A stretch of DNA of 64,000 bases from Schmidtea polychroa. Lineage: Eukaryota. The stretch covers positions 30,630,001 through 30,694,000 of the forward strand of contig CM097885.1 of the NCBI GenBank assembly GCA_044892525.1, read 5' to 3'. The notes beneath the pieces were generated by a model. That model did not search any database, was not told the DNA's origin, and saw nothing but the letters and a program-made list of their open reading frames with translations. Each line of letters opens with the position of its first letter. Position 1 is the first letter of the stretch. A program made the translations under genes and the position numbers. This document shows positions 894 to 64,000 of the stretch, piece by piece.

Positions 894-12648
<11,755 letters not shown>

Positions 12649-13079
12649 AAAATACCCACTATATGATAAAAGTTGTAAATTATTATTAAGAAATTTTAAA
12701 ATTTTTAGAAAATTTTAGTAATAAAATGACTTAACATTAAATATACAAAAATAATAATTAATTATTACTTTATAGTTCGAAACAAATTTAGCATTTTACA
12801 ATTAATGCAGCTTTGTTATAAATCAATATTAAAACAATGTCGAATTAAAGTTTTAAATTTAACTACATTTTTAATTCATTTTTAATTTTTATTCAATAGT
12901 TTTAAAATATTATACGAAAAATTTAAAATATAAAATAACTACTATTCCCCCAGAATCCAATACATAATACCTTAGAACTTTCTGAATTATTCCTTTAAAT
13001 GTGAAAATTTAATAATACATTGCTGATTTTATAACGCCATGACTTATTGACTATATATTTTGCCGATGGACAACAAATA

Positions 13080-18623: not shown

Positions 18624-20139
18624 TCTTCATTTGAGTGTATTTTTGGGTTGTCCTTTTTAATATTTTCTTCATTATTTTTCTGATCGATTGAGATAATTTC
18701 TCAACATTAATTTCCTTTACTTTGGATCCACCATTCAGGTTTGAGGATACCAATAATTTGCATTATTCTATGCCAGAGAAGAGATTTCTCATGTAATATC
18801 ATGTAATATCATAATAGTATATCCACTTCCTAATCTAACCCCGCTAACATCTTCAAATGTATATTCCAGGTCGTTTCTGGATTCGATTGCTCTTTAGTAG
18901 TTGGTTTCATCTGATCTTTTCGTGGACATATCCTGTTATCTTTTTTCGCATTTTTCCTTGGAGGAGGGGGGGTCTACTGTTTCCACTGCTTTTGGAGGAG
19001 GTGGGTCTACTGTTTCCACTGCTTGTGAAGTTGTAGCTCTCACGTTTGTCTCCTCTGGGTTCAGCTGGATGTAAGTGGTAGAGAAATCTTCTTCATCCAG
19101 ATCTACTTGTGGTATGGGTATTTCATCCAGCACGATTTATTCCACTTCATCAGGTAACCGTAATACCGACCATTAAAACTCGGGTGGCGTTACAGGTATG
19201 ACCATTACCGTCGTTGACTCGAACAGTAGACACCACGCGTCTACTAAATATTAGTCGTCGACTACTTGTTCTCCATGGATCATTATCAAAAATATATATG
19301 TTGTTAGTCCTAAGGCGGCTACGTCCCTTCTCATGGTTTTCACTTTTGTGAAACTGTGATATTCCTTTGACTCTTGCTCTACTACTCTCGCATCCAATGT
19401 TGTCATGCCTGTGATAATAGTGATAATAAATAATCATATGTGCATAGTTATATATTAATTTAATATAAAATTATTTAATATTTAATCTAATTTATTCATT
19501 TCCAATTACTATATCTAAAGGTTGTATATTAAAATAATGGAATTTTAATAAAAAATACACAAGGTAAAAAATACAAATAATTAATCACTTTTTAAAAATA
19601 TTAATTTTATTAATTTAAAATTTTATTTTCCCGAATATATGATAATTAAGGTGATGACTTCTTGAATTTTTTCTCAATTATCATTTCCTGTAGCATCATA
19701 ATTGGATGAACTTTTGCCTATTAATGACTAAAATGAAGTTTATTCCATTGAGATATAGAAAAAGGTCACGCACAAACCATTTTAAAATGTTATGTAGGCC
19801 ACTTTATCATATTATATAATTATATTAACCATATTTATTTAACTCGATAACAGTTTCTTTAATTTGTTACTTATTTAATATTTACTATAAGGCCTTTTCT
19901 ATTTCTGCTGCTGAGTACATGACAACATGCCATTCGAGAAGAACTCTTCTAACACGGCGAGGAACAAGGAAATCTGGACAAAGTACTTAATCAAGTTGCA
20001 AGCGTCATCAAGAGACAACATAGTAATTTATGAAGCATCTTTGAGTGAACGGAGTCGCATGCAAAGAAGTTAAGTTAACTGCACTCAAATTGAAAGATGG
20101 GGAAAGCTCAAACAGTCACAGAAGAAATAAAAATCAAAT

Positions 20140-23100
20140 TTTATTTTATAATACATTCATGCCGGTTAGGGCTGAAGGGGAGAGATTCTCAACCTTAAAA
20201 TTCTAAGGCTTCTTTCATTCATCAATCAACGATAAGTAGAGGCTCAATCGTTAGTACTGTTGTATTTCTTCTGTTAGGCTCAGTTACAAGGCTCAAGTTT
20301 TCAGAGGTTTTTCGGAGTTATCCATCAGGCAGTCCATATATAATCCAGTTGTAAGGTTGATTAGGAGAAGCTTTCACGATAGCTTCTGTCTGATAAGTTC
20401 GTAATCATTTGCATATTTTCGGTAGGCTTAAGGCTTTGAGTAGAAAGACTCATAGGTGATGTGTGTAGCGAGAATATTGATATGCATAATATAATAAAGA
20501 TAAAAAGAGTTGTTGAGGTTATGAATTAATATAATAATGATATGAAGACAAAAGTCACTCATCTTGATGTGGAATCCCTACAAGGATTCCTACATTTACC
20601 CAAAGAGAATGGAAAATACATATATACTCATATAAGTATGAACGCATAATACATAGAAAATTATTATGTAAATAAATAAGTAATATAAGTAGTTTATAAA
20701 ATAATAAGTAAATAAAATTATAGTAATTAGAAGGATAGATATGATATGCGTTGAGTAATATATACGTTTATACACATATACATGCATTAATAAGTTATAA
20801 AGTTTTATGATAAAATGTATAGGTGGTACATATGCAAATATATTAACCATAGAGAACAAATATATATGAGATACTTTGAATATATATTAAGTATATAAGT
20901 GATATATTCCTAGTCTTTGTATATATGCTGCCTGTAAATCTGGTAGCTGCTATTGATGGCCGCAGTGCAACATTTCTTTGCTAGGCTTTTGATCTCCGGG
21001 TTAGATAGGCCAACGATCCTAAGTATAGGATCATTCTTTTTATCCCATGAGCCAAGGGTGCCCACTACGAGGGCATGTACAGTGTGCGAGCATTTATGTA
21101 GACGTCCAATCTCGTCACCAAGCTCTTCATATTTTTCGTAATTATTTTTCCTAGCGTTAATATAGATTTCCCTTGAGTCAAAGGGAACTTTAATGTCAAG
21201 AATGTGAATTGACTTATTACGCTTAGATTTAAGAAGAAGGTCAGGCCGGAGATTGGAGGACATTCCTTCAGGTACTTTATAAATGTCCACATCAAAGTTT
21301 TTGGAGATAAAAAAGTTCTGCTGCAGTTTGCAGGACATTATCATGCTTATTTCTACGTGCATTTATTCTAGCTTGGCAGTGGTTAAAGATGTGTGCAGGT
21401 GTCTCAGAATGAGCATGACAATGCCTGCAAAGAATAGATTTTTTGGTTTTAAGGCGGTGAGGCGAGTAGTTAAGTTTCAAGATGTTATTACGAGCCCGTA
21501 TTAAGAAGAGAAATTGAAACACCAGGAAGAATGTCATTTTTAAAGAAGTAATTACCTATGCTACTCTCCCCAATTGCTTTTGCTATTTAACCTTGGCATT
21601 TCAACCTAACCCAGCATTCAGCATGAATAAGACTTATGACATTGTGAATTTCGGAAGAAGTAGACGATTAGGAGTCAGATATAAGGACGATGTCAGCAGC
21701 ATATGCCAGTATACCAATGTTGTGACCATGAAATAGGAAAGGGTGATTTTTTAGGACGTTGCGAAGTATAAAATCGATAGACAGACAGAAGAGTCATTGA
21801 TAAATGACAGCCCTGTTTGACTCCTTTAACAATTGGGACAGATGTTGAAAGTTCTCCTTCGCATTCAAAGAAAATTTGTACATTATTATACATATCTTTT
21901 ATAAAACTAATTGTATTGGCATTAAGTCTCATTTGGATAAGAGTGTACTAGATTAAATCATGAGGTATAGAGCCAAAAGCTATATCAAGCCAGATGATAT
22001 GTAAGTCAAGTTTCTTACGATAAGAGTAGTCCATAATCAGGTGTAGAGTTAAGTTGTGTTCAGCACAGCCATCAGATGCACCAATAGCCTTCTGGTTGTG
22101 CGTTAAGAGATTCCCTTCAATTATCCAGTTAAGAAGACGATTGTTAATCAGCGAGAAGAATATTCTATAAGCTGTATTCATGATGGAGATCGGTCTCCAA
22201 GAGTTAGCTTCATGGCTCACTTCAGATTTACCAGACTTAAAAAAAGTCTAGTGCGAAAGGTTTTCCAACTAGAAGGGCACTTAGAGTTACGGAGTATATT
22301 GTTACAGAGAGAGAGAATAAGTTCAAAGTCAGTAGATATTTTTCTCCAGTCAGAGAGTGAGATATTTTCCATACCAGGAGCAGTATTGTCCAGTTGAGTA
22401 AAGATATGTTTGATATCATCAATGTCGAAAGGAGAAGAGGAATATAATTCCGGATGAGAGGGGTATTGAGAATAGAAGTCAAAGGTACAATTTGTTGATT
22501 TACCAGCAAATAATATTAGGATATCATCCATAGTCGGTTTATGAGATTCCACTTTATTATTTAATATTTTAGAAATTTCCACTTTTGGGCTATATTTATA
22601 TTTCAGTCTTTTGGTAAAAATTAATTCTTTTGCAATTATAAAGTTTTTATGAATAATATCAGAAGGTTTGTTAATGATGTATTTTTGAGGATTAATGTTT
22701 CCATTAATTTTCTCAATCTCATCATCACCTTCAATAGTATTATTGTTAAGGTTAATTAGTAGGCTATTGATAAATGTTCGGTATTTCCGCACATCATCAT
22801 TTGGTAGTCTATGATTTACAAAATTGTTAATAATTGATTTAATAGTGGAGGTCGTAACAGGTATGTTAGGAGCAGTTAATTTTTTATTCTTGAATAAACA
22901 CTCAATAAAATGATATAAATACATAGGAGAGTCTGAAGGTGAGAAACAACGTGGGTATTCCAGTTTTTTTAAAAGGATTTTAATCGGTTATACAATTTTT
23001 TGAAGATCCAATATAGTTTCACGAATGTTATATGCAAGAATTGAATGATTGGATATACTATCATCAGTAATAGGATCGATAATAACCGCAAGCTTACTAC

Positions 23101-25548
23101 TTTTGTTAAGGAAGAAGAAAAACCAGTTGTCCTTACCATTAGACATAGGCATTACAATTTCGTTCCAGTTAGCAAATTCTTTAAAAGGAAAAGTGGAGAA
23201 AAAAGTTACGAAGTTGTGTTGGATAAGTGAATTTCCAATAAAGGGGTCAACAAATATAGAAGAGTTTCTCAGAGTATGAGAGAAGATATATGCCTTGATT
23301 GCATGCTGTGACCATCATGCATATTCTTTATCAATGTTATTGGAGAAGATAAGAGTATCAGGAAGAGGTCCGAGATAAAAACTTCACATTCCTGGGAATC
23401 AAGTATCGGACGAAGATTGACTTCCGTTTCAGTCATATTAGTATCAATTTGGCTAAGTATGGCAGGAGGAGGATTATTACCAGGGAATACAAAAGGTGTA
23501 AGATGGGTCAGAAAGATATAAGATTTGATTAGGTGGAATGGGATCCATGAGCCACAGAAACAGTATAAATGATCATTTTGATTAAAGTTATGTTTTTTGT
23601 GCTTTGATTTCATGTGTGCGCAGATAGTGGATAGCGGTGAGTCAATATAAAATATCGTCTTACATTTGCTACGATTTTTGTTGTAGAAAAAGCACGACAG
23701 ATTATTCGCGATGCGTCTCAGGTACTCTAGGTCACATTGGTATTTGTGTTGGAGATGAGTTATATGGTTATAAATTTGCTTAAAAGTTATGGGATTATAC
23801 GCAAATTTATTCTCACCCGCAGATCTGCACTGAATGCAGTCAATAATTGAATGTTCTTCAATTTCTATATGATGTATCTGAAGTGCGTGCGAGATTAATT
23901 TTCCTTATTGTGTATCGAAATGAGGCCACAAATAGAGGTTTTAAATCTGGATCTGCATTCAACTTTTCCACGACCATTAAGTTGGAATAGCATATGATCA
24001 TCAGGCTTCCTCTCGTTTGTGGTCTTAGGAGTAAAGATATTGCGTGTATATTTATTAAGAGTGACAGGAGTGAGGAAGGTAGGAGAGGGAGCCGGAATAT
24101 CTTTAGAAATAATTTGTATTTTTTTGCCAAAGACATCCATTTGCGAGTCAAGCCTAAATAGATCCTGTATCTCATTACATTGAGAGGAAGTAGGAGTGGA
24201 AGGAGATAAGTCAGTGTTAGTATTAGGAGAAGGGGCATTTTTAATGGGCTCAAGAGGAGTGATATTAGTAGGAGGGGTAGAGTGGATCCTGGAGCAATTT
24301 GGAGTATTAGAATTACTATGGTGGGGTGAAGTAGATTTATTCATCATAAAGGGAGATTCAGATGCAGTTGGTTGCTGAGATATGATCTTAATTGGTGATG
24401 AAATCTTAAAATAGTGAGTGGGTATAGCAGTATTAGTAGCAGATGAAGAGCTTTCAGATATGTAAACATCATCAATGTCAGAGTTGAACAGGTCAGCAGC
24501 ATTGGAATTGTTTTCATTAGAGGGAATGAGGTTGACAAAATTTTGAGGAATTAATTTATCCACGCCAAGAAAATCAATCATATCGTCAAGATTACAATTA
24601 TAAGGAGGATAATCAAGGTTGCATTGAGAGGAGCAGGAGGCAGATAAGTTAGAACAGGTGTTGGATAATGAAGACGAGGAGCATTCAGATTCGTCACCGG
24701 AGAAACTATCTTCCGTGTCATTCAGAGGTGAGGATTTAAAGTGTGCCGGGCCAATACATGATCCACCCGTAATTAATAACGAGGAAGATGATTTATTTTT
24801 ATAATAAGATTTTTTATTATAGTTGATAATAGGATAGGAGTCATAGGGTAAAGCTTCAGAGTAGTGACGCTTACGCGAATTGTTTAAGTTGTGGTGAGGA
24901 GCTACGGTTTCGGTAGGATAACGGATATGTATTAATTGGGAGGCGTGTAGTCAGGATTTGCAGTAGGAGAGAAGATTGAAAAATATTAGATTTAATAGAG
25001 GAGGAAGAGCAAGAGTTAAGGTCAGATGATATAGGTAAGGAGGAGGTAGCTGTGTCATTAAATGTAACTGTCTTTAATGATGCAAGTTGGCCGGAGGCCG
25101 GCGAGCTGCGTCTTTTCTCGTGTTCCGCAGGAAAATCTTTCAGAAAAAGAGGGTTCTTAAGTTCATAATATTTAAACTTCAGGATGTGTTAGAGGAATAA
25201 AACCTGCTGTGATCAATTGTGATGATTGTTACCGATGAAACAAGCGTGAATACCGGTAAGAAGCGCGTTGTTGTCCGACTGCACCAAATGTTCGAAGGTA
25301 AAGGTTTCCCTAAACCTAAGTTCATCAGTTTTGGTGGGTTTACTGGTAATAAATTATTATACCTCGTCGTGCTGTTTCCAGCGAAACCCAGAATACAATA
25401 GAAGCTTAACTACTTGATACCTGTTGAGTGATCAACGTTGGTGATGTATCAAAGGTTGGAGTACTAGCAAAAAGTGAGCATACTCTGTATACTATAATTG
25501 TTCAGTACTCCTTGGGTTCACGGACTGCCGATAGAAGGCCTGTGTCCG
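20140..25548 (-). mobile_element. Decayed near-full-length non-LTR retrotransposon with a restriction-like endonuclease (NeSL/Utopia/R2 group)
   Basis: 5' structured leader, S/T/P-rich N-terminus, C2H2-like fingers (~23500-23850). RT motifs TAPGMENIS, WRPISIMNTAYRIF, GCAEHN, WLDIAFGSIPH, GVKQGC, LAYAADI (YADD altered). Zn knuckle CRHC..ETPAHIFNHC, RHDNV-like motif, RLE PDLLL..ILDIKVPFD..KY, VGTLGSW; stop at 20910. ~770 nt 3' UTR ends in an A-rich tract near 20140. Many frameshifts and an internal deletion after the RT core. Confidence 0.92.
25323..25548 (-). ncRNA. Structured 5' leader of the non-LTR element, copy A
   Basis: Hairpins CGGAC..GCC-TTCTATC-GGC-A-GTCCG; GGAGTAC..GTACTCC; TTGATAC..ACCAAC..GTATCAA; TGGGTTT..AAACCCA; ATG at 25325. 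Confidence 0.6.
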
Positions 25549-25727
25549 ATTTATCCTGGTCCCTCTATTCAAGATTGTGTTTCCAGACCTCAATTCCTAT
25601 TTCCATCTCATTACCCAAACAAACGAATTTGTAACTGTACATAAACATAAGACTAAGTTAAAATTACAATTCTTTCAAATTCCACAATAAATGAAATTGT
25701 CATAACAAACTTTTGAATGTTAGCCGT

Positions 25728-26099
25728 TTATAGGAGTCTGGAAATTGGCACATTTGCTTGTTTGGCTAGCCGTAGCCTTGCCTGTGCTGCCTTGTCGGCT
25801 CGGGTCTTCCATTTTGGCTGAGGTGCGATTATGATTTCTGCCATTGGTTGGATCTGAGCGGACACGTCTTGGTCTATTGCTCGTTGGTGCACCTGCTTTT
25901 CTAAACTCCTTATTTGCAGGCGGAGAGCCCATATCTCGGTTTGATCTTGGGTGCTCTGAAGCTGTAGCTGCTGGATCAGCTTCAGGCGTTTTTGCTTTTC
26001 TGCTGGACTAAACCAGGTGCCTTCTAATTCCCGGCACCGTCCATTGAACTTGGCAAGTCTTTGTGCGATGGGCCTCCTCCATCTACACCTACGTTGCAC
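25728..26099 (-). CDS. Small coiled-coil protein of unknown function, probably borne by a repeat or mobile element; start codon uncertain
   Basis: 123-aa open frame with a protein-level paralog at 16389-16617. Confidence 0.5.
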   Translation of the reverse strand: MQRRCRWRRPIAQRLAKFNGRCRELEGTWFSPAEKQKRLKLIQQLQLQSTQDQTEIWALRLQIRSLEKQVHQRAIDQDVSAQIQPMAEIIIAPQPKWKTRADKAAQARLRLAKQANVPISRLL

Positions 26100-26888
26100 G
26101 ACAAACGTGATCCTGATTTCCGAAAATTTTCTTTATTCAATCACGTTGCTCATTCTCAGGGTCAGTTATTCCGCACTAAAGAACCGTATGTTTATTTTGG
26201 TGATATGGAACGGGGAGATATCAATTTGGCTCATGAACTATTGGATTGTCAACTTATCCTGATAAATGTTTAAGCCACAAAAAATTTTAAATTCGTTCAA
26301 TCGTTTCTGATCCAAACGTCTCCATGGATTTTTAATTATGAGTTGTGGATTATTTAATTTTCCATTATTATTTAATTTAGGTATGGTTTTAATAAAATTA
26401 AATTTTCAATCGGTTTTTCTAATTTAATTTTTGTTTAAAGTTTTTAAACGTTTCTCGTTCTTTGTACGCAGTAGATACCTTTTGATTTGTCACGAGTGTG
26501 TAGTAAGTAAGCTGGGGAAATTTCCGTCCTTTACTAAGGTGAGATTCGAAAAGGCGTTGCTATATGGGCGGCATGACGAAATGGGACTTTCTTAATAGCC
26601 GACGGTGATTGGCTGGTTTGCTAAGTGGGTATGTAGAGTTCGTTAGTTCACTCAACTCGCAGATGGGTATTTTTTGGAGGAAGGAGTATATTGCGAAAAT
26701 TAGATTGAGATAATAAATTAGATTGAGATTATAATAAAATATTATGATTTTTCATACGCCATGTTTACAAGTTTACAGATTTTTCTGTGACCAAGCTATT
26801 TTGCAAGCGATGTGATTTCCAGTGTACCGGGGGAAGTATGCAATAGAGTTGAATCAACAATATTGTATACTTACCTGGCGCGAAGAGA

Positions 26889-26932
26889 AATAGTACTGAT
26901 GAGAGCCAAAAGCTCGAAACTAGTCTACTATT
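26889..26932 (+). ncRNA. Type I minimal hammerhead ribozyme, Penelope-like/retrozyme type
   Basis: Stem I AATAGTA/TACTATT; core CTGATGA; stem II GAGC-CAAAA-GCTC; GAAA; palindromic stem III ACTAGT; GTC triplet with predicted cleavage after 26925. Confidence 0.9.
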
Positions 26933-27829
26933 GGGATTTGCACTGGGTATCACAAAGCTTGTACTGTTTATTTTATAATAAAATCGTTCTCACTATTGAG
27001 TGCTGATTTCAGATAAGGTACAATCACAAAAGAAAGTTTTTTGGCATAAAGAATGTGGCGGTATATATACCTGGTTTTCGGTGTGCGAGTACGTGTGTGT
27101 GCATTGATGCAGTAAAACAAAACCAAATTCTTTTTAATTCTGAAACATTCTATTTTTGATTTTTATCGATTTTGATGGAAATTTTTTCGTAATAATTTTT
27201 GTTTTTATTTTTCAATTATTTTTTATTACATTTGCCTCCATGATGGATTTGGGCATTTCTAGAATGTTCCATACTAAATTTTGCTCTAATTCTTATTTTA
27301 GAATCGGTTTTGTGAATTCTTTATAAAGATTTTCATATTTTGAATTAAATTATTTATTTTGCTTAACTTTTATTGTGTCGCTTGGAGGTCATGATGGGTC
27401 TCACCATTTTCATGGATTAAAATTTGTGTTTTTATTTAAAATCTGGACAAGATTTTCTTTATTTACAATTTTTATGAGATATTCTTTTAATTTTTCTCTA
27501 ATTTCTTTGAATCGTCTTCATTCTAGTTTGTTTCTGTAATTTTATGCTTTTCTGTTGTATTGAGTAGGTTTTCGTGCAATACTTCTTGCTCGTGTTTTAT
27601 TTTAGTTTTAATTTGGACGTTTTATTTTTGGTTATTTTATTTCTTTATTATCATTTTTTACTTGGCGTTGTATATATTTTTATTAAAGTAAACTTAATGC
27701 TAGGTATGCGTGTTGTGTAACACCACATTTCGTCCCAGTTTCGAGATATGGGTCTAGAATTCAGTTCTAGTCCAACAGTTGTCAACACCATCTGTTGAAT
27801 TGCGTTCTCTATGTTATCATAGACTATGA

Positions 27830-28360
27830 GTTCCATGGGTTCACTAAATCACGTGATTTGATGAGAAATTATGATGATTTGAAAGCAGCTTTCATCAACT
27901 GTAAAACTGAGAATAAGGAAACAACCAGCTGGAGAGACGATATGGAGCTTCTCTACCACCCACTCGAGTCATCCGTCATTAAATTGAAAGAAATGAGATC
28001 GCATTAGTGAAGATTTAACAGAGTCCAAACATCTGCAATCCACGTTGGAACTGTCGTCCTATTCTAACCCTTCTTGCTTTCATTCTGATGCCTGAAGCCT
28101 GTGACAGACTGCCTAAAATCTGTTCATTCATTTTCTACTCATTGGCTGATCCTTGGTCCAACAGATTTTGATGAACTATATGCAGTTCTGAATGACTACC
28201 CAAAAGGTCTCAAATGCTTGCAAAAACACTGGAAAATATATGAATCTCCCGTCAACATTGCCAAAATCTGTGAGTATGTGATTTAAGTTTTGTAAGACCT
28301 ACATGAATCCTGCTGCGACAAGGACAAGTTCCCACTGAGATTCAACTTATCCAATGACAT
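27830..28360 (+). mobile_element. Degraded DNA transposase C-terminal region, family uncertain
   Basis: Fragmented ORFs HWLILGPTDFDEL..LKCLQKHWK.. and DLHESCCDKDKFPLRFNLSN with stops and frameshifts. Confidence 0.35.
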
Positions 28361-28659
28361 TATCGTGAATAATTGACCTCTTTGTGTGTTTGATCACCCT
28401 ATATGATGTTGTATATATAGTTATGTTTTGAGCACATAAGGAGATATCGCATGACTACCATAGACGCATTTACCCAGACTATAGTGAGCTCAACTTCTGG
28501 TTAAGCAAATAGGTTTCTAGACCATTGATAATTCAAGAGTTAATATAAGATCACGTTTAGACATTTAATGGTTTCCTTTAATTAGATATCCACTTTTCCC
28601 CGAAGTCGTAAATGTTAGTATATAATGTTACGGAGTCAGACCTCTGTTGTTTTCTTTTA

Positions 28660-28896
28660 GACGTAAGACCTTCTAACGGCAGTTCTGGTCATTGAGGCAT
28701 GTATAGGTCGAGTAGCTGGATAAAGTCAGGTAACCTCTACCCATGCATTCCGCCACACATTACCAACGCGTCTCATCCACGCGGATATACAGTTGATTGC
28801 TTGGAAGTCTTGTTTGGTGTTTTAGCCTCGGAAATAGGTAATTTCATCTCTAACAATAACACCGTTGAAAAACTGAACTAGAACGCCAATAATATG
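28660..28896 (+). ncRNA. Structured leader, copy C, with no downstream RT detected
   Basis: GACGTAAGACC-TTCTAAC-GGCAGTT; GCATG..GAGTAG..GTAACCTC..CATGC; ACCAAC-GCG..CGC-GG; TTGGTGTTTTAG..CTAGAACGCCAA; ATG at 28894. Confidence 0.55.
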
Positions 28897-31357: not shown

Positions 31358-33340
31358 TCATTTTCCGTTTTCATTATGTTTCCCGTCACCAAATAGGAAG
31401 AATTTCCCATCTCTTAAGCTGTCATTTGAAACAATTAATTGATGGTCATTATGTTCATGGTTTGGGTTTAAGAGAGAGACAAAAGAAGCATGGCTACGGT
31501 GTGCTCGTTGCAAATTTCTTAACCTGTTATTTCCCCTTTTCTCGTCATACAATGATGACGTTGAATCAATGTTGCTAATTTCTTGAGCCTCGAGAATACT
31601 TTGACAACGATAAACTTTCAATACTCCTGAATTGTATGCTTTTCTTTCTAAAGTCCTATTGTTCATGAACCATTTCTTGAAGTATTCATTATTGCAATTC
31701 CTATACCAATTTTCCCACTTAAATCTCAAAGACGATGATCCAATAACGGTTTTGATACCTTCCTTAACTCTATCGCAAATCTTTTCTTGAAGACTTAAGA
31801 AAACCAATTTTTCCCCATGAGTTTCAATGGAAATTTTCAGAACTTTTACCAACGGTTTAATTGAAGCTCCTAAAACATAAACGGAAAAGAAAACCATAAT
31901 TGCTGTTGCGCTTTGATAGAAATAGCGATTATCGAAATATTCATTAAGAGTCAATACCAACGAGAATCCAATGGCACCTCTCAGACCACCGTGGGCTTGG
32001 ATAAAGAGTGCTTTCTTATATTCCAATTTTTCATTTCGGAAAATATTGATAATAAATCCTAGAAAGTAAACGACAATAAAACGAGAAATATAACAAGAAA
32101 CGATGAGGAAAATCGAAAATCGTATGTCACTGTTTTTTAATAATCCAGTTGGAGAAAATGAGGTAAGCCCCATCATGATATAAATGACACCCTCCGATAA
32201 CAAGCTCAATTGAGATATAACTTGACTTATGATCGTATTGCTAGTGACAGATAAATTGGCCTGTACATATTGTCGTTGGATAAGAACACAAAAGAACAGG
32301 CTGATAATGCCGGATCCTTTAATAAAATCTGCGGTAATATAAGTGAGATAATTCAAAGAGAAAACAGCGACGAATTCCAAAGCCTGTTGGTTATAGAATA
32401 TTTTGCTGACATAACTAATGACAACGGCCATGACAAAGGCTAAAATGACAGAAATAACAAAAGCGTACACAAAGTAAAGAACGACAATTGAAAGGCTCTC
32501 AATGAAATTAATCTCTGGAATAGTTTTTATCTCATAAAAGGCCCGATAAAAAACGACAGCAACGCCATCATTGAGAAGAGATTCCCCGAAAACCACATTG
32601 TAAACCAACTTATCAATATGCATTGACTCAAACACCGACAACACAGCAACCGGATCAACAGCGCAAATGATTGTAGCAAACAATCCAGAATCGACAACAT
32701 CAAAATCTATCGTATCAAAAATGCCCCAACGAGACTTGCTGCCATAATAGAAAAGCGGCGCCAAAATTACAGCGTTCAAAATCGTTCCGACGATAGCAAA
32801 CAAAAGAATCGTTCCGAGATTTCGATAGAATGTGATTTTGTCTGTCGACCAAGCAGCTCCCATTACAATCGGAACGAGGAGGAGATTAAAAATCAAATTC
32901 GGATCCAAAGATCCTTCCCAGTTGATGCCCAATTTCAAGAGAATTATCGCTATGACAGCTCCCGATGAAACAAGAAATGCGCTTTCCGGTAGAATGCTGC
33001 CGGGTTTGATTTGATGTTTTGAGCATTTCTTTTGCGGGAGGATTTTCGGAAAGGTTTTGTTGTCACATCTCATGAAACAAACCAACAAGCAATAGTTGAA
33101 CGTTTTTTCTGATGCATATTTGACAAAAACAAACAAAATGACAAATATCGTTCCTGCGAAATAGATTTTCAACGATTCGAAATGGAAACTCGCAAATGGA
33201 TTATAAAGATTTCCAGATTGGAAATGGATTTCCTGTGAGATATTTCTTGTCTGATTTGTTGATATTTCATTTTTATCAACTGGATATGATCTGACGATGG
33301 AAATCCAAAACAAAAGTAATGCGAAAATTATTTTCTTCAT
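31358..33340 (-). CDS. Na+/H+ exchanger (SLC9A/NHE, CPA1 family), 660 aa
   Basis: Signal peptide and multiple TM helices; LPES, ILLFAIVGTILN, AVDPVAVLSVFE, VFGESLLNDGVAVV and GGLRGAIGFSL motifs; uninterrupted ORF. Confidence 0.95.
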   Translation of the reverse strand: MKKIIFALLLFWISIVRSYPVDKNEISTNQTRNISQEIHFQSGNLYNPFASFHFESLKIYFAGTIFVILFVFVKYASEKTFNYCLLVCFMRCDNKTFPKILPQKKCSKHQIKPGSILPESAFLVSSGAVIAIILLKLGINWEGSLDPNLIFNLLLVPIVMGAAWSTDKITFYRNLGTILLFAIVGTILNAVILAPLFYYGSKSRWGIFDTIDFDVVDSGLFATIICAVDPVAVLSVFESMHIDKLVYNVVFGESLLNDGVAVVFYRAFYEIKTIPEINFIESLSIVVLYFVYAFVISVILAFVMAVVISYVSKIFYNQQALEFVAVFSLNYLTYITADFIKGSGIISLFFCVLIQRQYVQANLSVTSNTIISQVISQLSLLSEGVIYIMMGLTSFSPTGLLKNSDIRFSIFLIVSCYISRFIVVYFLGFIINIFRNEKLEYKKALFIQAHGGLRGAIGFSLVLTLNEYFDNRYFYQSATAIMVFFSVYVLGASIKPLVKVLKISIETHGEKLVFLSLQEKICDRVKEGIKTVIGSSSLRFKWENWYRNCNNEYFKKWFMNNRTLERKAYNSGVLKVYRCQSILEAQEISNIDSTSSLYDEKRGNNRLRNLQRAHRSHASFVSLLNPNHEHNDHQLIVSNDSLRDGKFFLFGDGKHNENGK

Positions 33341-34893
33341 GTATCCAATTATATTGTTTGTTGGCTAAATGATACAATCAATTTATTTATTTGTCAATTT
33401 TATTAAAATATTTTAAACAAATTATAAAGCATTTTTTATAAAACTTGTAAAATAAGTAGAAATTATCTAAAATGAAATTTTAAAACTCTTCGTTAATTTT
33501 TGCTTTCATTATACAAGTGATTACGTAATCGAAATTCATTAATTTATGTAAATATTTACAGAATAATTCACGGATAAATCTAGGATTTTTTCCTAGTATA
33601 TTGTGTGTACATCTCAGTGAGTTTGGAAACGAATCGCATACTCAATTTGATTAACTTTGAATTAAAGTTATTTATGACCAAAAATATTAACAAATAATTT
33701 TAACGTGGTTTTTTATTTAATATGAAAACATAATTTTGACCGGCAATACATTAAAAAAATTTTTTTAAATAAACTTTATAGCTCAATTCTAAAAATGTAA
33801 TTATATATGATATTAAGTTAGTATATAAACATAAAAGTTTTATATTAAATTTAAAATGTCAACATTTTATTAATTTTCAAAAATATTAACTATAAAAATT
33901 ACTAAAACTTCGATAAATTTTAAGAAAATATGATTCATTTTATAAATTAATAGATTTACACAGTTTATTATAATTTGAAATATTTTATGTTTAATAAATA
34001 TATATTAAAACAAACCAACTTATTTTATTTAAAATCCTTTTTATAAATTTATTTATAAATTTATTTTTTTTTAAATTTAACTATTTTTAAAATTTAATTT
34101 ATTTATGGTTTCTAGAATATTATAAAAAATGGAAATCTTTTAATTTTCCCATGCACACTTTAAATTAAGATTTAAATAACGATGTCATTTGTGAAAGATT
34201 TATAATGATAAAATCAAATTAATGTTGTAGTGCAATATAAAGTTTGTATAAAAGTATTCCTTATCGATTGGCTTTTTTAATTCAAAATGTTACATTTTCA
34301 AGATCTGTGCACTGTATTCAGCTTGTCCCATTACCTAAATGATAATTGACATGGTATGTGGATATCATTACTAAAATATGATTACCTTCAACTGCGTGCA
34401 AAGGCACTAAACTATCAACTAGTGGAGTGATTTCAAAATTTTGCAATTTGCAAACTATTCCAGTATTTATTGCATATGTAAAAAAACTAAATGCAAAAAT
34501 TTGGACATTTTCTTTGTTTCTTTATTATGTGTTTCCAAAGGATCAATAATATTATTGGGGTTGGTAAGAAAACCAAAAAAAATTATACATAAAAGGAAGG
34601 CATAACAATTATTTGTAAAATCAATAAAAGTGTAGAATTAATTAAAATTAATTAATTACTAATGTTGAGGTCTCACTTTTTAAAACCCCAACTTACTGGT
34701 TCTTATATAATTATTTGAATAAAATTAAGTCTGTTGAACAAAGTTTATTTATAAATAAAATTCACCTTTTAATTACAAAATTTATCTTTTAATCCTTTTC
34801 AAAATTCGCTAATCAACGATGCGTGTTGTATATTGTTAATATGTATGCCGTGCGTGTTATATTATAATTGCAAACTCAATATGTTAGACTTTC

Positions 34894-36040: not shown

Positions 36041-37724
36041 ATATACTATTTTTAAGTGACTGTAAAAATAAATATTTTAATTTCCGGCATATACGCACGG
36101 AATATTATATTATATTTATTATATTTACTTTCTATAATATTAATTAAAAATTATTCTTCCATTATTTGCCTTGCGTGTTTATAAAAAGAATTTAATTAAA
36201 ACTCTATTTGTTAATTTGGGTGCTTATATTTAATTACAGATTTATATTTTCCTAAGAAAATTAAAACTATAAAATTTATATTAATTTATATATAATAATT
36301 TATATTAATTTATTTATTAAAATATTTCCCCTTGTATTTATATATTAAATGTATTATCACATATATACACCGATTAAAAGGAATAAAATTAAAATAAAAT
36401 ATAACATAGTGTATCCATAATAAAATATTTACAATCATTCAGGATCATAGTGAATAGTCAATAATAATATAAATGAATGTCATACACGGTTGTTATTTCG
36501 ATCACAAAGGATAATTATTGTTTTTTGAATGGTATTGGATTGGAATGAACTGTTGGGGAATTGGATTGATAGGTATGGTGAAGCTTTAAAGATATGGAGA
36601 AGTTTTGTCGAATTCCACTCTTCGGCGAACACATTAACCCTATATTTGTTTGGCCCCGTTCTGTAATACTTATCTAGGGTAAATGTAGTGATGGGCCTGC
36701 CCTCATCATCTAACACTAAAAATCAAAATCAGCGCCAAATTGATTGGCGAGTTCAGAAATTATATTGAAAATGTAATGAAAGGTTCACAGAGAAAGTTAA
36801 TGTAAATAAAAACAAATAAGAAACGAAACATAATACAATAATTATTAAATTAAAAAATATTAAAAATATCAAAATAGACAATTATCGATTAAAACAAAAA
36901 ATTAATAATATCTAAATAAACTGGCTGGAACCAAGAATTTGTTTTAATGAATCATAAATACATAACATAAAAACCGCACCAAGTTGAATTAAAATCCATG
37001 GTCATACACCAAATAATACAAAATAAAATACATAATACATTTAGGATAAATAAAAAACGTATAATAAAATAAAGGGACGCAAGTAGTTGCAATCACCAAC
37101 ACAATTAGGAGAAATATCGCATTCAAAAAATTTACCAACTAGAAAATAAAATAATAATAACTAAAATAATCGGTAATAAATAAATTAATAATATGAAAAT
37201 GTTTTAAATAAATAAATTTAAAATTGAAACTAAAATATCCAGTAAACTGATAAAATGATAAAAGAGTAAAATAGAAGTAGTAAAATTATGTAAATTATAA
37301 AATTTATAAAACTAAATTGTTTAAATCAATGAAAACTAAAATAAAACTAAAATAATTTAAATTATAAAATTTATAAAACTAAAATAAAACTAAAATTATT
37401 TAAATTATAAAATTTATAAAATTAAATTGTTTAAATCAATGAAAACTAAAATAAAACTAAAATTATTTAAATTATAAATAACGATGTCATTTGTGAAAGA
37501 TTTATAATGATAAAATCAAATTAATGTTGTAGAGCAATATAAAGTTTATATAAAAGTATTAATTTTTTTTTAATTCAAATATAAAATTTAGTATAAAATT
37601 TATAAAACTAAATAGTAAAAATTAATAAAAATTAAAAATATTTTTGATTAATTAAACTAATTAAATTAAAAATAATAATTACACACACTCATGCATGTAT
37701 GCAGAAGTAAATCAAAATTTCTCG

Positions 37725-37800
37725 CATTCTGATTGGATCTAGTGGCAGAGAATGCATGCACAGTCAAAATCAGTATAAATACTGATTGAAAATTCAGTTA
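37725..37800 (+). promoter_or_regulatory. Pol II core-promoter-like arrangement
   Basis: ATTGG (reverse CCAAT) ~37732, TATAAATA 37774-37781, Inr-like TCAGTT 37794-37799; the TATA-Inr spacing is shorter than canonical. Confidence 0.35.
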
Positions 37801-38633
37801 AACAACTAGTTTTAACTGGAAATCAACTTATCATTGTGTAAACAATTCTAGGCGCTCTCAGTTTTCGGTTCATGCCATCGCGGTTGGTTAAATTGGATTT
37901 TGGTAATTTTATGTAAATCGGATTTTATATATGACATAAATTAATGTAATGTTTTAATGATTTAATAAAACTTTAAATTTAATTTAGTTGAGTTATTTTT
38001 GTTGTGTTTTGTCAATCGTTTTATTGTTTATTTCGTTTTTGAAGTTTCAGTAATATTTATAATTTATATGAATGTTATGTAATTCGATTTTATGAATATT
38101 TTTCTGATTTATGCTTTGATTCCCCCAGATTGAACAAATGGCACTCGTGCTGTTGGCCAACAGATGTTTTGCCAATTTGACGCATCGTTTTATAGGATAT
38201 AGTTATGGGGCCGAAGAAAAATATAGAGTCATTTTGGACAGTTTGGAGCCTTGTTTTAAATCTACTCCGTCACAATTATGTTTATGAATACGAGTGAGTT
38301 AGGAATAGTGATAGAGTAACTAAGATCGGTTGTCAGTAGATAAAGTTCAGTTTGGGTAAGCTTATAGAATCTGCGAATGGTTAGGATGTCAAATAGGTCA
38401 AAAGTAGAAATACATGCAGATCCCTGCTCAAATTTTTGGGAAAGATAAGTTAAACTTTCATAAATAGGACGGAAAATACATTTATTATTTCTGGTAACAT
38501 TTATTAACAGAAAAATAAGTGCATATCCCTGCACAAAATCTTTGAAAAGAACAATGGAAAACATCTAGAAACGAGGACCATAGTTAAATGAAGCCATGCC
38601 AATGATCCAACAATAGAAATAGACAATGAATAA

Positions 38634-38880
38634 TGACGTAAGACCTTCTATCGGCAGTCAAGAACCCCTAAGGAAAATACAATGAGGAGTAGTTTTAGCA
38701 ATAGAGCTCACCTGCTCATTTATTTTCAACCATTGTGTACAGTACCAACATGGTCGTCGACATGGGTACACAGATGGTCTAAAGTACAATAGTTATGAAG
38801 GCGTTTAGGAAGGAGTCGATTTAACATCTAAAATTACCCCTAACACATTTAAAAATAAAATGACACGCTCCTAAGCAACT
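38634..38880 (+). ncRNA. Structured leader, copy B, followed by a decayed K/E-rich ORF (5' part of a related element)
   Basis: TGAC-GTAAGACC-TTCTATC-GGC-A-GTCA; GAAAATA..GAGTAG..CTCACC..TATTTTC; TGTGTAC..ACCAAC..GTACACA; GCGTTTAGGA..TCCTAAGC. Confidence 0.6.
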
Positions 38881-39605
38881 AACACAATAAAATATAATAA
38901 TATCAAACAAAGGAGCACTAAAGAGGTCAAACAAATAAATGGATGAAGGAGAAAACATATGAAGGGAAAATGAGTAAATTGGGGGAAATGAAAAAAAAAG
39001 CTGAAAAAGAAATTCAAGAAAAAAGACATAAGACAAGAGAAATTGTCGAAAAGACGAAGTAAATTACCCTAAAGGAACTTAAGGAAATCAAAGTTGAAAT
39101 TACATAAATTATATTGAAAAAACGCATGTCTAAATATAGACAGACGGAAAATAGAAAAAAAAATTCATAATTTAAAAGTATAGGCGCTGATTCAAAAAGC
39201 ACCTACACTCATTGAGTAAGATCATGAATAAGCCGATATGAAAAAAATAATAAAAGTGCTCGGCAGGAGGCTGTGCACAGCAGACCAATACCAACAAAAG
39301 AGAACAGCCGCCGAAACTAGTCCTAAACCCAATAAATTAGAACAATCAACTCATCGCAGTTCGAGATACAGGAAGAAAGGAGCCTATAGAGAAATCAAAA
39401 TTAAAGAAAACATTTGCCAAAAGTAAGGTTCCACATGAAATTGATCTTTTGCTAAAATGTTTTATTTAATATTGTCATTTTTGGTCATTTTTGGCGTGAC
39501 ATAATTATGCAATGACCCCTATAACATTTTATTTATTTTTATTAATTCTTTTAATAATAAACAAAACTTTATAAAATAACAAAATTTTAAAAAAATTAAT
39601 CTGCA

Positions 39606-40371: not shown

Positions 40372-40806
40372 ATAACCACATCGCAGAAAATTGAAAATGA
40401 TGCGTGGAATGCGGAACAACGGTAAGTCAAGAGCTGCAACTGATCTTCCGAAACTATAGTCGAAGGACGGGCTTAACACGTTGACGGGCACTTGCGTCCA
40501 TAACCGTCAACGCTAAGTCCACAATGTAACATGACTACAATAGCAGTCGAAAATGAAAAGGTCATTATGGCACCCTGTAAATACTTTGTGTTAGGATTCG
40601 TTTTAATTTTAGACATTAACAAATTTAAAGTCGTGAATAATTATATATTATTTAAACAAAGTATTTTCTTAATTAATTTTTGGGGAATTAATTCAAATCC
40701 AAATAATATTTCGAACAATTTCAACATTCAATTTCAACATACCACAACATTCAAATAATAAAATATAAATGCTATAAATATGAATAGTTTAACAAATTAT
40801 CATGAA

Positions 40807-40880
40807 AGCGTTTAGGAAAGAGTCGATTTAAAATCCATCTGTAACCCTAAAATATTTAAATGACACACCTCCTAAGCGCT
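40807..40880 (+). ncRNA. Structured leader, copy D (fourth hairpin only)
   Basis: AGCGTTTAGGA..GTCGATTTAAA...TTTAAATGAC..TCCTAAGCGCT is homologous to 38800-38880. Confidence 0.55.
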
Positions 40881-41334
40881 AACAGTCCAATAGAAGTTAT
40901 CTCCTTGAGAAAATATTTAAATATAATTCTACTAGTTAAACGTTAAATTTAATATAGTTTGTAAAACATCTCGCGACCTAAAATAAACAATTACAATCTT
41001 TTTTCAACATAATATCAGACAATTTGATGAAAATTCTAATTTATTCTCTTGAAGTTTTCGACAATTTCTTTAGCAAAGGTTTTTATGATAAAGGTTCGAC
41101 TACTAAGAGATGGAGCACATAGGGAAATGATGAAGGGACAATGTAAACCGAGGCAAGACATCTTCTACGGTAGCCAGTGAACGTTGCGACTCGTCTTGTC
41201 ATTAGCAGTTTTCATTGTAAAGCTCACATTTTTGCCGAGAGTCGCCCGCTGTGCTCTAAATAATATCATTGTAAAATGTTTAAATTAAAATTTTTACTTT
41301 AAAAATAAACATAGTGTAACATTTTTTTGTTTAA

Positions 41335-41405
41335 CACATTGGCTGCCAACTACGAGACAAGTCGTAGTTAACATATCAGAATTGATCAACATGGCAGTCA
41401 ACGTG
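41335..41405. mobile_element. 71-bp piggyBac-type mini element
   Basis: TTAA-CACATTGGCTGCCA ... TGGCAGTCAACGTG-TTAA; a related terminus TTAA-CACGTTGAC lies at 40473. Confidence 0.65.
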
Positions 41406-43828
41406 TTAAGTAGAATCCGCGCTACAACCAAGATGGATTAGTCAATAACCTTGTGGATCACTATGGTGAGAAAACCATAGTGGGTCACTAATTTGAGGTT
41501 GCAGTAAACATCATTTAGTTGTTTATTTTCACTTTATAAAGTGATAAAGTCATAGTCCCTTCAATTAATTTTTGTAAGTAGGACAAACGAAGGATTAAGA
41601 AAAGTAAATGGATCAATTAGGGTAAAATCAGGATCATATTATTGAAGGTGATTATTGTATTAAAGTTCAAGGAATCCAACAACCAAAATGGAACTTGTAG
41701 AGTAGTCATAATGTGCATTATTTCATTCTTTTATTTCAGGAGCGCGGTTACTATTTTATTATTTCTTTTGTTATTCGAACCCTTATCATTTATTATCAAC
41801 CCAAACCTCATTGTTAATGATATAAAAAGTTTGTTTAATATCATTTAACTTCAATTGTGCTTCATTTATCGTATTTTTGAAATATAATCTGATATTGTTG
41901 AAAAATATTTTGAAAAATTAAAATAATTTTACAAATGAAATTTTTTAATTATTTTTAAAAAAATGTGTAAAGTTTAAGAAAAAAATGAATTTTATTTTAT
42001 ATTTTATAACGAAAATTTTCATATTTTACTATTATAATTATTATTATTACTAATATTTATTAAAAAGAGCTTGAATACTATAAATCAGTAATATATCGAT
42101 GTTTTTGATATTCACAATAAATACAATGGAAAAAGTTCAGTGAAATTGGAAAAATTACTATTATTATTTCTTTCTTATTAATAATTTCGTAGTATTTTTG
42201 GCCGTGCAGGTACATCCATTGGCCAGGTCTTCTTTAATCTGGAGGCCTAAGCTGTTTACTGGTGATAAATCGACAACACTTCGAATGTGATTTAACAATC
42301 GTAGTGTTTATTTAATATAATTAGAGGTTTGATTTGAGTCATTTAATTATATAAATCTGATTTCTATAACTTCTAGAAGCAATCACTTAACTGATTTCAT
42401 CATCGTCATCTGGATACTTGATAACATTGCGAAGTTATTATTTTAAGGTCACTCGTTTGTTCAAAGAAGTCGAAATTCGAGTGAGTTTTTTCTTTTCTGA
42501 CACCATTGTCATAAATAAGAATTTGAATTAATAAGTTTATTTATAACATTTTGTTCTATCTGTAATTTTTTCGATTTGTTCCAAAGTTTCAGTTTCTTCA
42601 ACTTCATTAACTTGTATGGCTTTAGCAATTTGTTCGACTTCAGCTTCAACTTCAGAATCTTTGTAATGCATGTTTGAATTGAATTCTGCAACTAGTTTGA
42701 CATTTTCTTTTTTTTTGAAAATAGGAAAAAATGAAGTATATTATTATGGTAAGATGTGGTATTATGTAATATACAGTGTTATATATAGTGTAATATATTA
42801 GTGTTATATATTGACTGTATTATGTTTGTGTTGATGAGTGCGTGTGTCTGTTAGGAAATTTTATAAACCCGACAGAGTCTCCGTTAAAAAACGTGGCGAG
42901 ACAATCGGGGTGCATGTGTATCTGCGTGCTTAACAACCACAAATAAAAATGAATAATAACCAAACAATAACAACTTTTATTTAAATAATAAGAATTTAAA
43001 GCAACCTTTGTTATTTTCTTGGTAGTTTATTCTCGCTTTTCTTATCAAGTAGATTTGTGGATCGTCGTAGAACAATTTAGGACAGAGGATCACAGTCGAA
43101 ATCGATTTTGATATAAGTGAAGAATCTGGATGATTTATCTTTTAAAGCGTTTATGTCCTTTCACTAATATTTCAGTTTTCTATTAAATTATATTTAGAAG
43201 TTGGAAGATTCAATTTATAAATCGTATATTTTCTCCTGATAATTTTTAGTTGTTCTTTAAATTATATTCGGGAATAGAACTGTTCGGCCTTTCAATCGTT
43301 TGTTTCTTTTGAATAATCTTCAGCTATTCCTTAAAATTATATTTAGGAATTGATCTGTTTAACTTTTGGATCGTTCACTTTCTTCTATTAATTTTTCTTA
43401 TTCTTCGAAATTACTCTTTTCTACTTTAATTTAATTTTTTTATTGATTTTTTTCTTTTTTTTCGATATTTTTTTTTACCATAGTAAATTATCGCTATATA
43501 GTATTTTTTATTTGTTTGCCATTGCGGCCTACCCTCGATAAAATGACAAGGCGTCGCAAAACCTTGTTTAAAAATAAATAAAATATATAACAGTACATTA
43601 CATATATAAAATTATTTAAACAAAAATCTACTTATATACTTAATTTTAATTTAATTTAAAATATAAATATTTATAAATTCTATTGGTACTTCTTTTACAA
43701 CCAATAATTTTTACGATAAAAGTGTGACCAGCCCAATTATTTACTTGCCCCTGATACAGCTGACCAAAATTGCATAAGAATGCAAATATTAAAAATAGAA
43801 TATATTTCGAAATAAAAATATATAGATA

Positions 43829-52217: not shown

Positions 52218-52630
52218 GATTTCGAAATCTAATATTATAAAGAAATCACACGTTTTCTTCGAGAGAGGTCAAATGAATTTTATTCGATATTTTTTTTACT
52301 TTATCGCAAGTGCAAAATATTACATAATATCTGCACATGTAAATATTCGATTAGTTTAAATATCAACTTGACCGAATGTCAAACAATTTAGTTTCTATTT
52401 AATATGTATGTTTTTGTTGAAAAATATTTTTTAGACTGTAATGCAAATAAAACGCAACAAATTTGGAATGGATATTTGTTTTTTTGTCTATAATAACAGC
52501 TTGCAAATCTTCTCTTTATGATTATGTATTTCAATAATTATTTCAAGGTCTACCCATGATATTTTGGTGTTTTCGTCCAATAACAACACTGATTTAATGG
52601 GAATGTTTTTATGAATAAAATATTTCTCGG

Positions 52631-61540: not shown

Positions 61541-62919
<1,379 letters not shown>

Positions 62920-64000
62920 TTTGTTTTTGAATAATTTTAATGAGGAACGTGAGTATTTATATTTTCTTTGTTATAAAAGTGTTGTCAGTCTTAACAACAG
63001 AAACTATATCTTTAAAACAATTTTCAATATTTATATTGATAAATGATATTATTGAAAATTTGTAAATATTGAAATTTTTTACACTAAACGATCGAAATAA
63101 TTTAAATAAATGTTTTATTTAATAAATGTTAATAAATTTATTTTTTGAGATTTTAGCAAATACAATAATTAAAAATAATGAATTAACATTTGGAAGCAAT
63201 TTTTGGTTTAATAAACTGAATATCGACGTTATGTGAAAGACATTCTATGGAATAACTTAATATGTGGACATTATTAATTATTTTATAAATTAAAATCAAA
63301 ATGAAATAATAAATAGGTCATCCGTGATCTGTTTTTTGAAATTTCTTTAAATTTCATTTTATTTAAAAAGTAACTCTAGAAAAAGGCAAAGTAGAAAATT
63401 TGTGTTAAGTTTAATAAAAAATATTTGATTTTTTGCTAAAATAAAAAATTTAAAACGAATTCTATTGATTCTATAAAGAACATTGATTAAGATAAAAAAA
63501 TGGTTTTTACAATAACATGATTTAAGAATTTTGTAAGACAAAAATAGGCAGTTTTTATTTTAAGGCCTGAGTTCTGGATCAATGAATTTTTCAGGTTATT
63601 TAACCTTCACTAAGGAGCGCCAAATGATTGTTGCTAGATTTGGAATCAACTCTTCACGCCTTTACGACTATTTTACTTTTTCTGCCTGTGCACCCATGTC
63701 AACGACCTTAATTGGTAATGTATAATGTGGCTGAAAATAAATGAGTAGGTGAGATCTATTCCTGAAACTACTCATTACACTTTCATTTTCGGGTTCATAA
63801 CTTCCAATTGCCTTATCGTTGCTAGATCATTACAAATTGCTTATATTTCTAATTCGAACCTAAATTGATTCTAATTACGAGAGGATTTTATAATACCACC
63901 TAAAAACTAAGTCTTCTCTATGTTTACTCAAAATCTACCTCCTTTTTATTATTACCAACCTAATTCGCTATACTCAATAAAAAGTTGTCAGTTGTTGACC

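Follow-up and report, generated by a model that had tools for sequence, protein, structure and literature searches.

The final 210–280 bases of the long terminal repeats (LTRs) of Burro-type giant gypsy elements, which are present in thousands of copies and end on the terminal CA, almost certainly make up an RNA domain, strongly conserved, at the LTR's U5 end. We recognized this domain, a succession of four hairpins (H1 to H4), in a 64,000-nt stretch of Schmidtea polychroa DNA (GCA_044892525.1, contig CM097885.1, positions 30,630,001–30,694,000 of the forward strand), hereafter the window. By analogy with retroviruses, we give a probability of roughly 0.5 to the reading that the RNA acts as a structured leader of the unspliced genome. 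Located before the primer-binding site (PBS), the fold would dock the primer tRNA-Pro, and it would mark unspliced genomic RNA for packaging and reverse transcription. A preliminary description of the window had placed the RNA at the 5´ terminus of a non-LTR retrotransposon and suggested an internal ribosome entry site (IRES) or a ribozyme; we consider both of these functions less likely than a primer-docking and genome-selection leader. The copies in the window, with coordinates counted from its first letter, are as follows.

25332..27777, minus strand: locus A, an A-type solo LTR, decayed, with TGTTG...CACCA ends
25332..25548, minus strand: structured RNA copy A (H1–H4), which terminates at the LTR end
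25521..25548, minus strand: H1 of A, with a 5-bp outer stem, a purine-rich internal loop without GT (A lineage) and the invariant UUCUA loop
25458..25511, minus strand: H2 of A, a long stem with the AG-U/hairpin/G-CUCAC bulge module
25414..25452, minus strand: H3 of A, a covarying stem with the ACCAAC bulge and an apical hairpin
25336..25389, minus strand: H4 of A, a terminal stem closing beside the LTR end, in a short form without the tRNA D-arm box
36928..38884, plus strand: locus B, a B-type LTR remnant broken up by other DNA
38634..38884, plus strand: structured RNA copy B (H1–H4), whose last bases are the LTR terminal CA
38638..38643, plus strand: GTAAGA in the H1 internal loop of B, a predicted splice donor
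38834..38844, plus strand: in the H4 loop of B, a short version of the box that is complementary to the D-arm of tRNA-Pro
28436..28891, plus strand: locus C, a C-type LTR of which the 3´ part is present, the RNA occupying 28660–28891
40795..40884, plus strand: locus D, a B-type copy with H4 (40808–40879) and the LTR terminus
63635..63823, minus strand: locus E, a decayed B-type copy from H2 through part of H4, not in the preliminary description
41147..41250, plus strand: locus F, a truncated copy (H1–H2) from another LTR lineage in which the stems are completely exchanged, likewise newly found

Every stem and loop previously listed for A, B and C is present at its position, and D, described as partial, indeed holds only H4 of the four hairpins. 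A scan of the window with a covariance model from 37 copies recovered E (63823–63667) and F (41147–41272). Copy C is decayed, with losses of 5 nt in H3 and ~30 nt in H4 relative to its relatives and an LTR terminal CA that now reads TA, and the intact B-type LTR, 1.66 kb long, was found in an apparently non-autonomous element. The H1 loop motif occurs three times in the window, compared to a shuffled mean of 0.25, and 2,958 times as an exact copy genome-wide, with none for the reversed control; copy counts for the genome are based on exact motifs and DNA searches rather than on a whole-genome covariance model. A candidate continuation of H3 at 41331–41410 was rejected. This segment is an unrelated ~80-bp element that has terminal inverted repeats, encloses a hairpin and exists in many near-identical copies.

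Among the first 30 loci taken from the genome, copies cease to resemble one another at a CA located ~200–270 nt past the motif, and three of these loci run on into TGGGGGCTCAGCCGGG. With a loose pattern, such a terminus is seen in 81 of the 89 motif loci that could be parsed, out of 90 retrieved. One whole element of 30.4 kb carries LTRs of 4,177 bp that are 99.9% identical, with TG...CA ends and a 4-bp target duplication (TAAT); a second, of 15.4 kb, has 1.66-kb LTRs and the target duplication TAGG, and further LTR pairs were found in addition to these. In 5´ LTRs, a tRNA-Pro PBS starts 7 nt past the RNA end, complementary over 17–24 nt to a tRNA-Pro(TGG) gene of the same genome, while a purine-rich tract (polypurine tract, PPT) precedes 3´ LTRs. 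The RNA lies immediately upstream in all 12 PBS loci examined, several of which are near-identical or were already in the locus set. The 30.4-kb element has Pfam matches to gag with CCHC knuckles, a Monjiviricetes-type fusion domain, protease, integrase, ankyrin and MATH domains, and full-length elements encode gag, an env-like protein, protease, reverse transcriptase (RT) and integrase. RT identity is 91–99% among five RT-bearing elements from three lineages. The LTRs of different lineages can be aligned over just 25–32 nt, inside the RNA, and 9-mers common to at least three lineages are limited to the LTR start, H1 and H2. Burro/GYPSM1 elements of planarians are known as LTR elements of ~30 kb in thousands of copies (Jurka 2007; Grohme et al. 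2018, as cited in the available part of PMC6431247). Our assignment rests on size, domain order and RT, set against that published description. In most lineages, an AATAAA with a U-rich tail is found 90–190 nt before H1, past the stop codon of an open reading frame (ORF) encoded in the LTR; we tentatively place the RNA in U5. Contigs of four sequencing runs gave no usable transcript start, end or splice junction when compared with a young element.

We also noted that some A-type LTRs (L052; G000:C1:213548553-213549038) contain the entire RNA domain in two tandem copies. Separately, a 150-bp block (L031:5240-5405; L003, upstream of H1) is 93% identical between two Burro-type LTRs with diverged flanks, and a similar block is also seen in B-type LTRs; this could be a promoter or a second structured element.

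The neighborhood of locus A explains how the RNA came to be linked to a non-LTR retrotransposon, and two further features are needed here.

20128..25177, minus strand: non-LTR element, broken, that carries a restriction-like endonuclease motif and is presumably NeSL-like, an independent insertion
25176..25330, minus strand: 155-bp piece of an older repeat between the LTR and the non-LTR element, containing the ATG noted after A

In the window, the RNA is positioned upstream of the non-LTR element, which is all that speaks for it being that element's 5´ leader. The start of locus A matches the LTR start of A-type elements bearing a PBS, the solo LTR has a 4-bp target duplication with one mismatch (CAAC/AAAC), and the older repeat resumes on either side (27813–28164 and 19645–20127). 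Other copies of this repeat are uninterrupted across 28164–27813, 25330–25176 and 20127–20063, and therefore the LTR and the non-LTR element represent two separate insertions into it. For other A-type copies, 29 of 29 lose their match to the window at 25317–25340 and continue into unrelated DNA. We also scanned 13 loci from nine other genomic places, with 1.5-kb flanks, that carry the 5´ part of the non-LTR element. None of the nine has the RNA at the 5´ end and eight have no RNA in the 1.5-kb flanks; the ninth has one RNA copy within the broken element and another 1.2 kb away on the opposite strand. Thus neither element is associated with the other elsewhere, the homologs of the RNA sit at LTR termini rather than at non-LTR 5´ ends, and we give next to no credence to the non-LTR leader. 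The ATGs that had been noted within ~10 nt downstream of A and C both lie in flanking DNA past the LTR end, so that the argument from a downstream ATG fails as well.

The proposal of an undescribed covarying RNA common to several element families was borne out. There was no Rfam match in the window at the gathering level, and none in 14 loci at E-values up to 5. Searches of metagenome contigs gave no match to the RNA, and those of viral contigs gave nine matches, each to a short motif alone, in collections with few animal genomes; we found no description of an RNA structure in these LTRs in the literature searched, which did not extend to the original Burro paper or to any supplements. The preliminary description had further stated that the stems change sequence while retaining pairing. 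This holds for H2 and H3 across eight lineages but not for H1 among A, B and C, whose outer stems are essentially one GAC/GTY core, leaving little H1 covariation among these three. Compensatory change in H1 appears by lineage, as GAC/GTC versus ATGG/CCAT versus AGGC/GCCT, the latter two coming from other lineages. The near-invariant parts are unpaired: the H1 loop UUCUA, the H2 bulge CUCA and the H3 bulge ACCAAC.

Pairing was assessed by swapping stem arms between lineages in 40,000 permutations, with each of eight lineages represented by a single well-preserved copy because copies are related; these were picked by hand and the anchor for H3 was set to maximise pairing, which biases the test toward pairing. 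For H2, the own arm was the best partner in seven of eight lineages (-17.8 versus -8.5 kcal/mol; 2 of 40,000 permutations) and for H3 in six of eight (-8.3 versus -1.8 kcal/mol; 2 of 40,000), while for H4 it was best in three of eight (31 of 40,000). An alignment made from sequence only also predicted H3, with 15 pairs, 13 of them with double changes. For H1 and H3 together, 75.4% of cells pair, compared to 61.0% when shuffled (0 of 500) and 26–39% when slid. Because the outer stem of H1, like the C-type H2, was placed out of register by MAFFT, the H1-only figure of 47.6% is not a valid test, nor are the H1 pairs of covariance model R1. In the H3 pair cells, G-U (39) exceeds A-C (16), which favors this strand acting as RNA. 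These results bear on the view that conservation acts on the DNA, through enhancer, integrase or chromatin sites, with stems that are incidental or derived from one recent ancestor. LTRs are regulatory DNA, the 91–99% identical RTs indicate that the lineages are related, and the folding z-scores (below) are modest, all of which would fit such a constraint. However, the arms differ by lineage and still pair best with their own partner, the G-U excess is on one strand and pairing drops in the slid controls, making a constraint on DNA very improbable.

For the primer, tRNA-Pro was scanned in 14 segments against 12 RNA copies, with the upstream LTR as the comparison. Pairing was better than in the upstream LTR for three segments, all over tRNA nt 5–29 (-3.6, -6.6 and -2.5 kcal/mol). 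Taken copy by copy, the D-arm duplex reached p <= 0.03 in eight of 22 copies and 0.06–0.11 in five, two further copies without a parsed end having been dropped. In Burro-type LTRs, the complementary box lies within the variable H4 loop and is present in 35 of 37 copies. The G lineage has an H4 without the box, and the equivalent duplex sits 38–55 nt before H1. When whole elements of 24–26 kb were searched, the box was the best D-arm site in four of six and the second best in the B-type element. The 22 distinct versions of the box show 30 transitions at positions where G-U is tolerated and none at the four pair-breaking positions, a count that is partly built into the search pattern and whose events are not independent. 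Collectively, complementarity to the free arm of the primer outside the PBS exceeds chance in the Burro-type and G lineages. The A-type element that lacks the box carries the longest PBS match, of 24 nt.

Other contacts were tried and rejected. Pairing of a PAS-like GAACCC (resembling the primer activation signal, PAS) after H1 in A, B, G and F types with the tRNA T-arm was not significant (p 0.08–0.96). No covariation was seen for pairing of the H1 loop with the tRNA-Lys D-arm (-15.7 versus about -14 when shuffled) or with the H2 or H4 loops, nor for a P1.1-like pseudoknot. Reading ACCAAC as an anti-tRNA motif does not hold up against the tRNA-Pro of this genome. Genes for tRNA-Pro(TGG) form a tandem array with a 475-bp period at G000:C1:130.90-130.95 Mb, and about 2,300 pattern matches are found genome-wide. 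The spacer between LTR and PBS (L031:8587-8596 and equivalents) is 7 nt long and reads A-U5-GG in most lineages, is shorter in A type, and resembles what we take to be the consensus of an Sm-binding site.

The fold is also the site of a candidate splice donor. For ORFs outside gag-pol in five elements, 21 of 30, corresponding to about six distinct genes, have a YAG with a T-rich tract no more than 9 nt from one of the first three ATGs, compared to 91 of 3,072 ATGs overall. This suggests that the accessory genes are expressed by alternative cis-splicing or by spliced-leader trans-splicing. The GTAAG of H1 is the only donor-like site that four elements have in common before the first acceptor, and it is present in 73 of 94 non-A copies; in two A-type elements, a shared donor-like site is located after the PBS. 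Given its position, the predicted donor would be present in both LTRs. No splice junction from the H1 donor was seen among 15 of 31 joints in sparse contigs not recorded as RNA, and the contig joint 4141–4385, considered as an intron, is not GT-AG. Each element (L031-L034, L216-L219, L220-L223, L224-L227, L228-L231) has 5–6 accessory genes that start right after a YAG acceptor. We further observed a conserved protein of ~250 aa (RPCFSC...ELEGTWFSP; L031:7231-8016) encoded in the LTRs of Burro-type, G and A lineages, with a splice acceptor before its gene and AATAAA after it, a placement like that of sag, nef or bel; it had no Pfam, PDB or convincing Atlas match. A remnant is found in the window.

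25728..26132, minus strand: LTR-encoded ORF remnant with the ELEGTWFSP motif, about 250 aa in intact LTRs

These signals raise the possibility, which we regard as open to considerable doubt, that the fold mainly controls RNA processing, by governing U1 access to the H1 donor, suppressing or permitting the poly(A) site of the LTR, or driving the export of unspliced transcripts, and contributes little to priming. The donor-like site lies about 90–190 nt past AATAAA, close to the 195 nt of HIV-1, and foamy virus, in the available text of PMC3694450, uses structure to gate a donor that lies inside the LTR (in R) and is present in both LTRs; the same text describes splice donors of HIV-1 and foamy virus as coupled to poly(A) control. 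However, the A and F lineages have no GT at this site, and processing leaves unexplained both the tRNA D-arm box and its relocation. Because GTAAG is absent in A and F while the rest of H1 is kept, donor function cannot explain the invariant H1 loop.

The distance to gag is relevant to translation. The gag ORF starts ~3.4 kb after H1 with an upstream RING ORF in between, and H1–H3 might act as an IRES or translation enhancer by which the genomic RNA reaches gag, ~3 kb downstream past the RING ORF. Factor-binding RNAs typically combine variable stems with invariant bulges, and IRES activity is reported for the Drosophila Gypsy 5´ untranslated region in the available part of PMC1635307. No conserved AUG follows the fold, however, the ATGs of A and C being flanking DNA; an ATG occurs in the spacer between LTR and PBS for some lineages only, and the first real ORF, which has its own acceptor, begins 340–650 nt past the LTR end. 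An IRES therefore appears unlikely.

Still less probable is a self-cleaving ribozyme formed by H1, perhaps with H2 and H3, either a degenerate HDV-like (hepatitis delta virus-like) fold or a new class, comparable to LTR-borne retrozymes. The layout of H1 resembles what we take to be the P1/P3/L3 core of HDV-like ribozymes, its loops are near-invariant, and plant retrozymes reportedly carry ribozymes in their LTRs. Yet the P1 equivalent is 3–5 bp in 14 of 14 copies, against the 6–7 bp usual for HDV-like ribozymes, and the H1 loop lacks the G of HDV L3. As the preliminary description had remarked, H1 is without an HDV-type P2, and we found no conserved P2 or J4/2 in the 14 copies. A P2-like partner after a J4/2-like motif occurs in five of 14, three inside the H2 stem and the rest short or distant. 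No Rfam ribozyme was matched even at E-values up to 5, and cleavage in U5 would separate R from the PBS, which should block strand transfer.

Several observations weigh against a leader that docks the primer and selects the genome. The folding signal is modest or weak, with z-scores of -2.47 for A, -2.08 for B and -0.50 for a young copy (separate shuffle z-scores cover 15 of 19 copies), and by mutual information over 73 H3 rows, which included decayed and mis-anchored copies, only four predicted pairs are in the top 25 of 1,485. The D-arm duplex is not significant in 14 of 22 copies, including all three A-type copies tested. A-type LTRs are without the box, including a full-length RT-bearing element in which the box falls outside the top four D-arm sites; the box is weak in B and C types, and that of the G lineage could make a local hairpin, other sequences within the same element pairing with it equally well. 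With regard to position and splicing, transcript start and poly(A) sites are predictions from the DNA, B- and G-type LTRs have no AATAAA within 400 nt upstream, and GTAAG is found in none of 63 H1 copies classed, crudely, as A or F. The acceptors before ATGs could serve spliced-leader trans-splicing, which occurs in flatworms and needs no donor. A bolder variant, which we consider a long shot, is that H1–H4 form a T-box-like switch that senses tRNA and captures tRNA-Pro via the D-arm box, the PBS and the invariant bulges. In this model, docking would flip the leader from splicing and translation, with the H1 donor exposed, to packaging and reverse transcription.

Elsewhere in the window, host genes were found by translation at 1362–12714, 31358–33364, 44046–52268 and 61541–62815, all on the minus strand, which we presume to encode mitochondrial DNA polymerase gamma, a Na+/H+ exchanger, a thrombospondin-repeat protein and beta-tubulin, respectively.

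Structured leaders that serve the primer, splicing and genome selection have been charted in detail for a few retroviruses and for Ty elements of yeast, and scarcely for metazoan gypsy elements. One genome with thousands of copies, and at least eight LTR lineages that differ everywhere but in the fold, amounts to a natural covariation experiment. It yields a testable structure, a candidate new RNA family, a predicted primer contact that changed position between lineages and a first outline of how giant Burro elements may express their accessory genes.

Compared with known systems, the RNA shares with HDV-like ribozymes, in what we take to be their order, a short stem (H1), a pyrimidine-rich loop of 6–7 nt and an outer stem, and differs from those of R2-group leaders in having no P2, no catalytic J4/2, a short P1 and an LTR element as host. 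As in plant hammerhead retrozymes, a structured RNA is kept in the LTR. The host elements agree with Burro/GYPSM1, as portrayed in the available text of PMC6431247, in their size of ~30 kb, their LTRs, gag with CCHC knuckles, RT, integrase, ankyrin and MATH/TRAF domains, an env-like fusion domain placed between gag and protease, and thousands of copies; that account, as available, covers proteins, and LTR RNA structure, primer and splice signals are added here. Extra primer tRNA contacts are described for Ty1 (boxes 0, 1 and 2.1), Ty3 and Drosophila Gypsy, with a bipartite PBS and a D-arm contact in U3 for Ty3 and two tRNA sites for Gypsy (available parts of PMC3592414, PMC5371799 and PMC1635307), and one Ty1 box was seen in vitro and is unconfirmed in particles (PMC3592414 and PMC5371799, same parts). 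As in these elements, the primer here is predicted to pair beyond the PBS, D-arm included. Unlike what those texts describe, the PBS is full length (17–24 nt), the primer is tRNA-Pro, and the predicted box is upstream in the LTR, displayed in a hairpin loop and variable in place by lineage. Retroviral R-U5 leaders, such as the HIV-1 PAS and major splice donor region, foamy virus and the HTLV-1 Rex element, likewise have multiple hairpins before the PBS, a donor-like site near the poly(A) signal and accessory genes with their own acceptors, one of them within the LTR (PMC11251516 and PMC3694450, as far as their available text extends). The planarian RNA differs from these leaders in having no sequence or Rfam similarity to them and a predicted U5 of about 300–450 nt, and its predicted donor lies past the poly(A) signal yet within the LTR.

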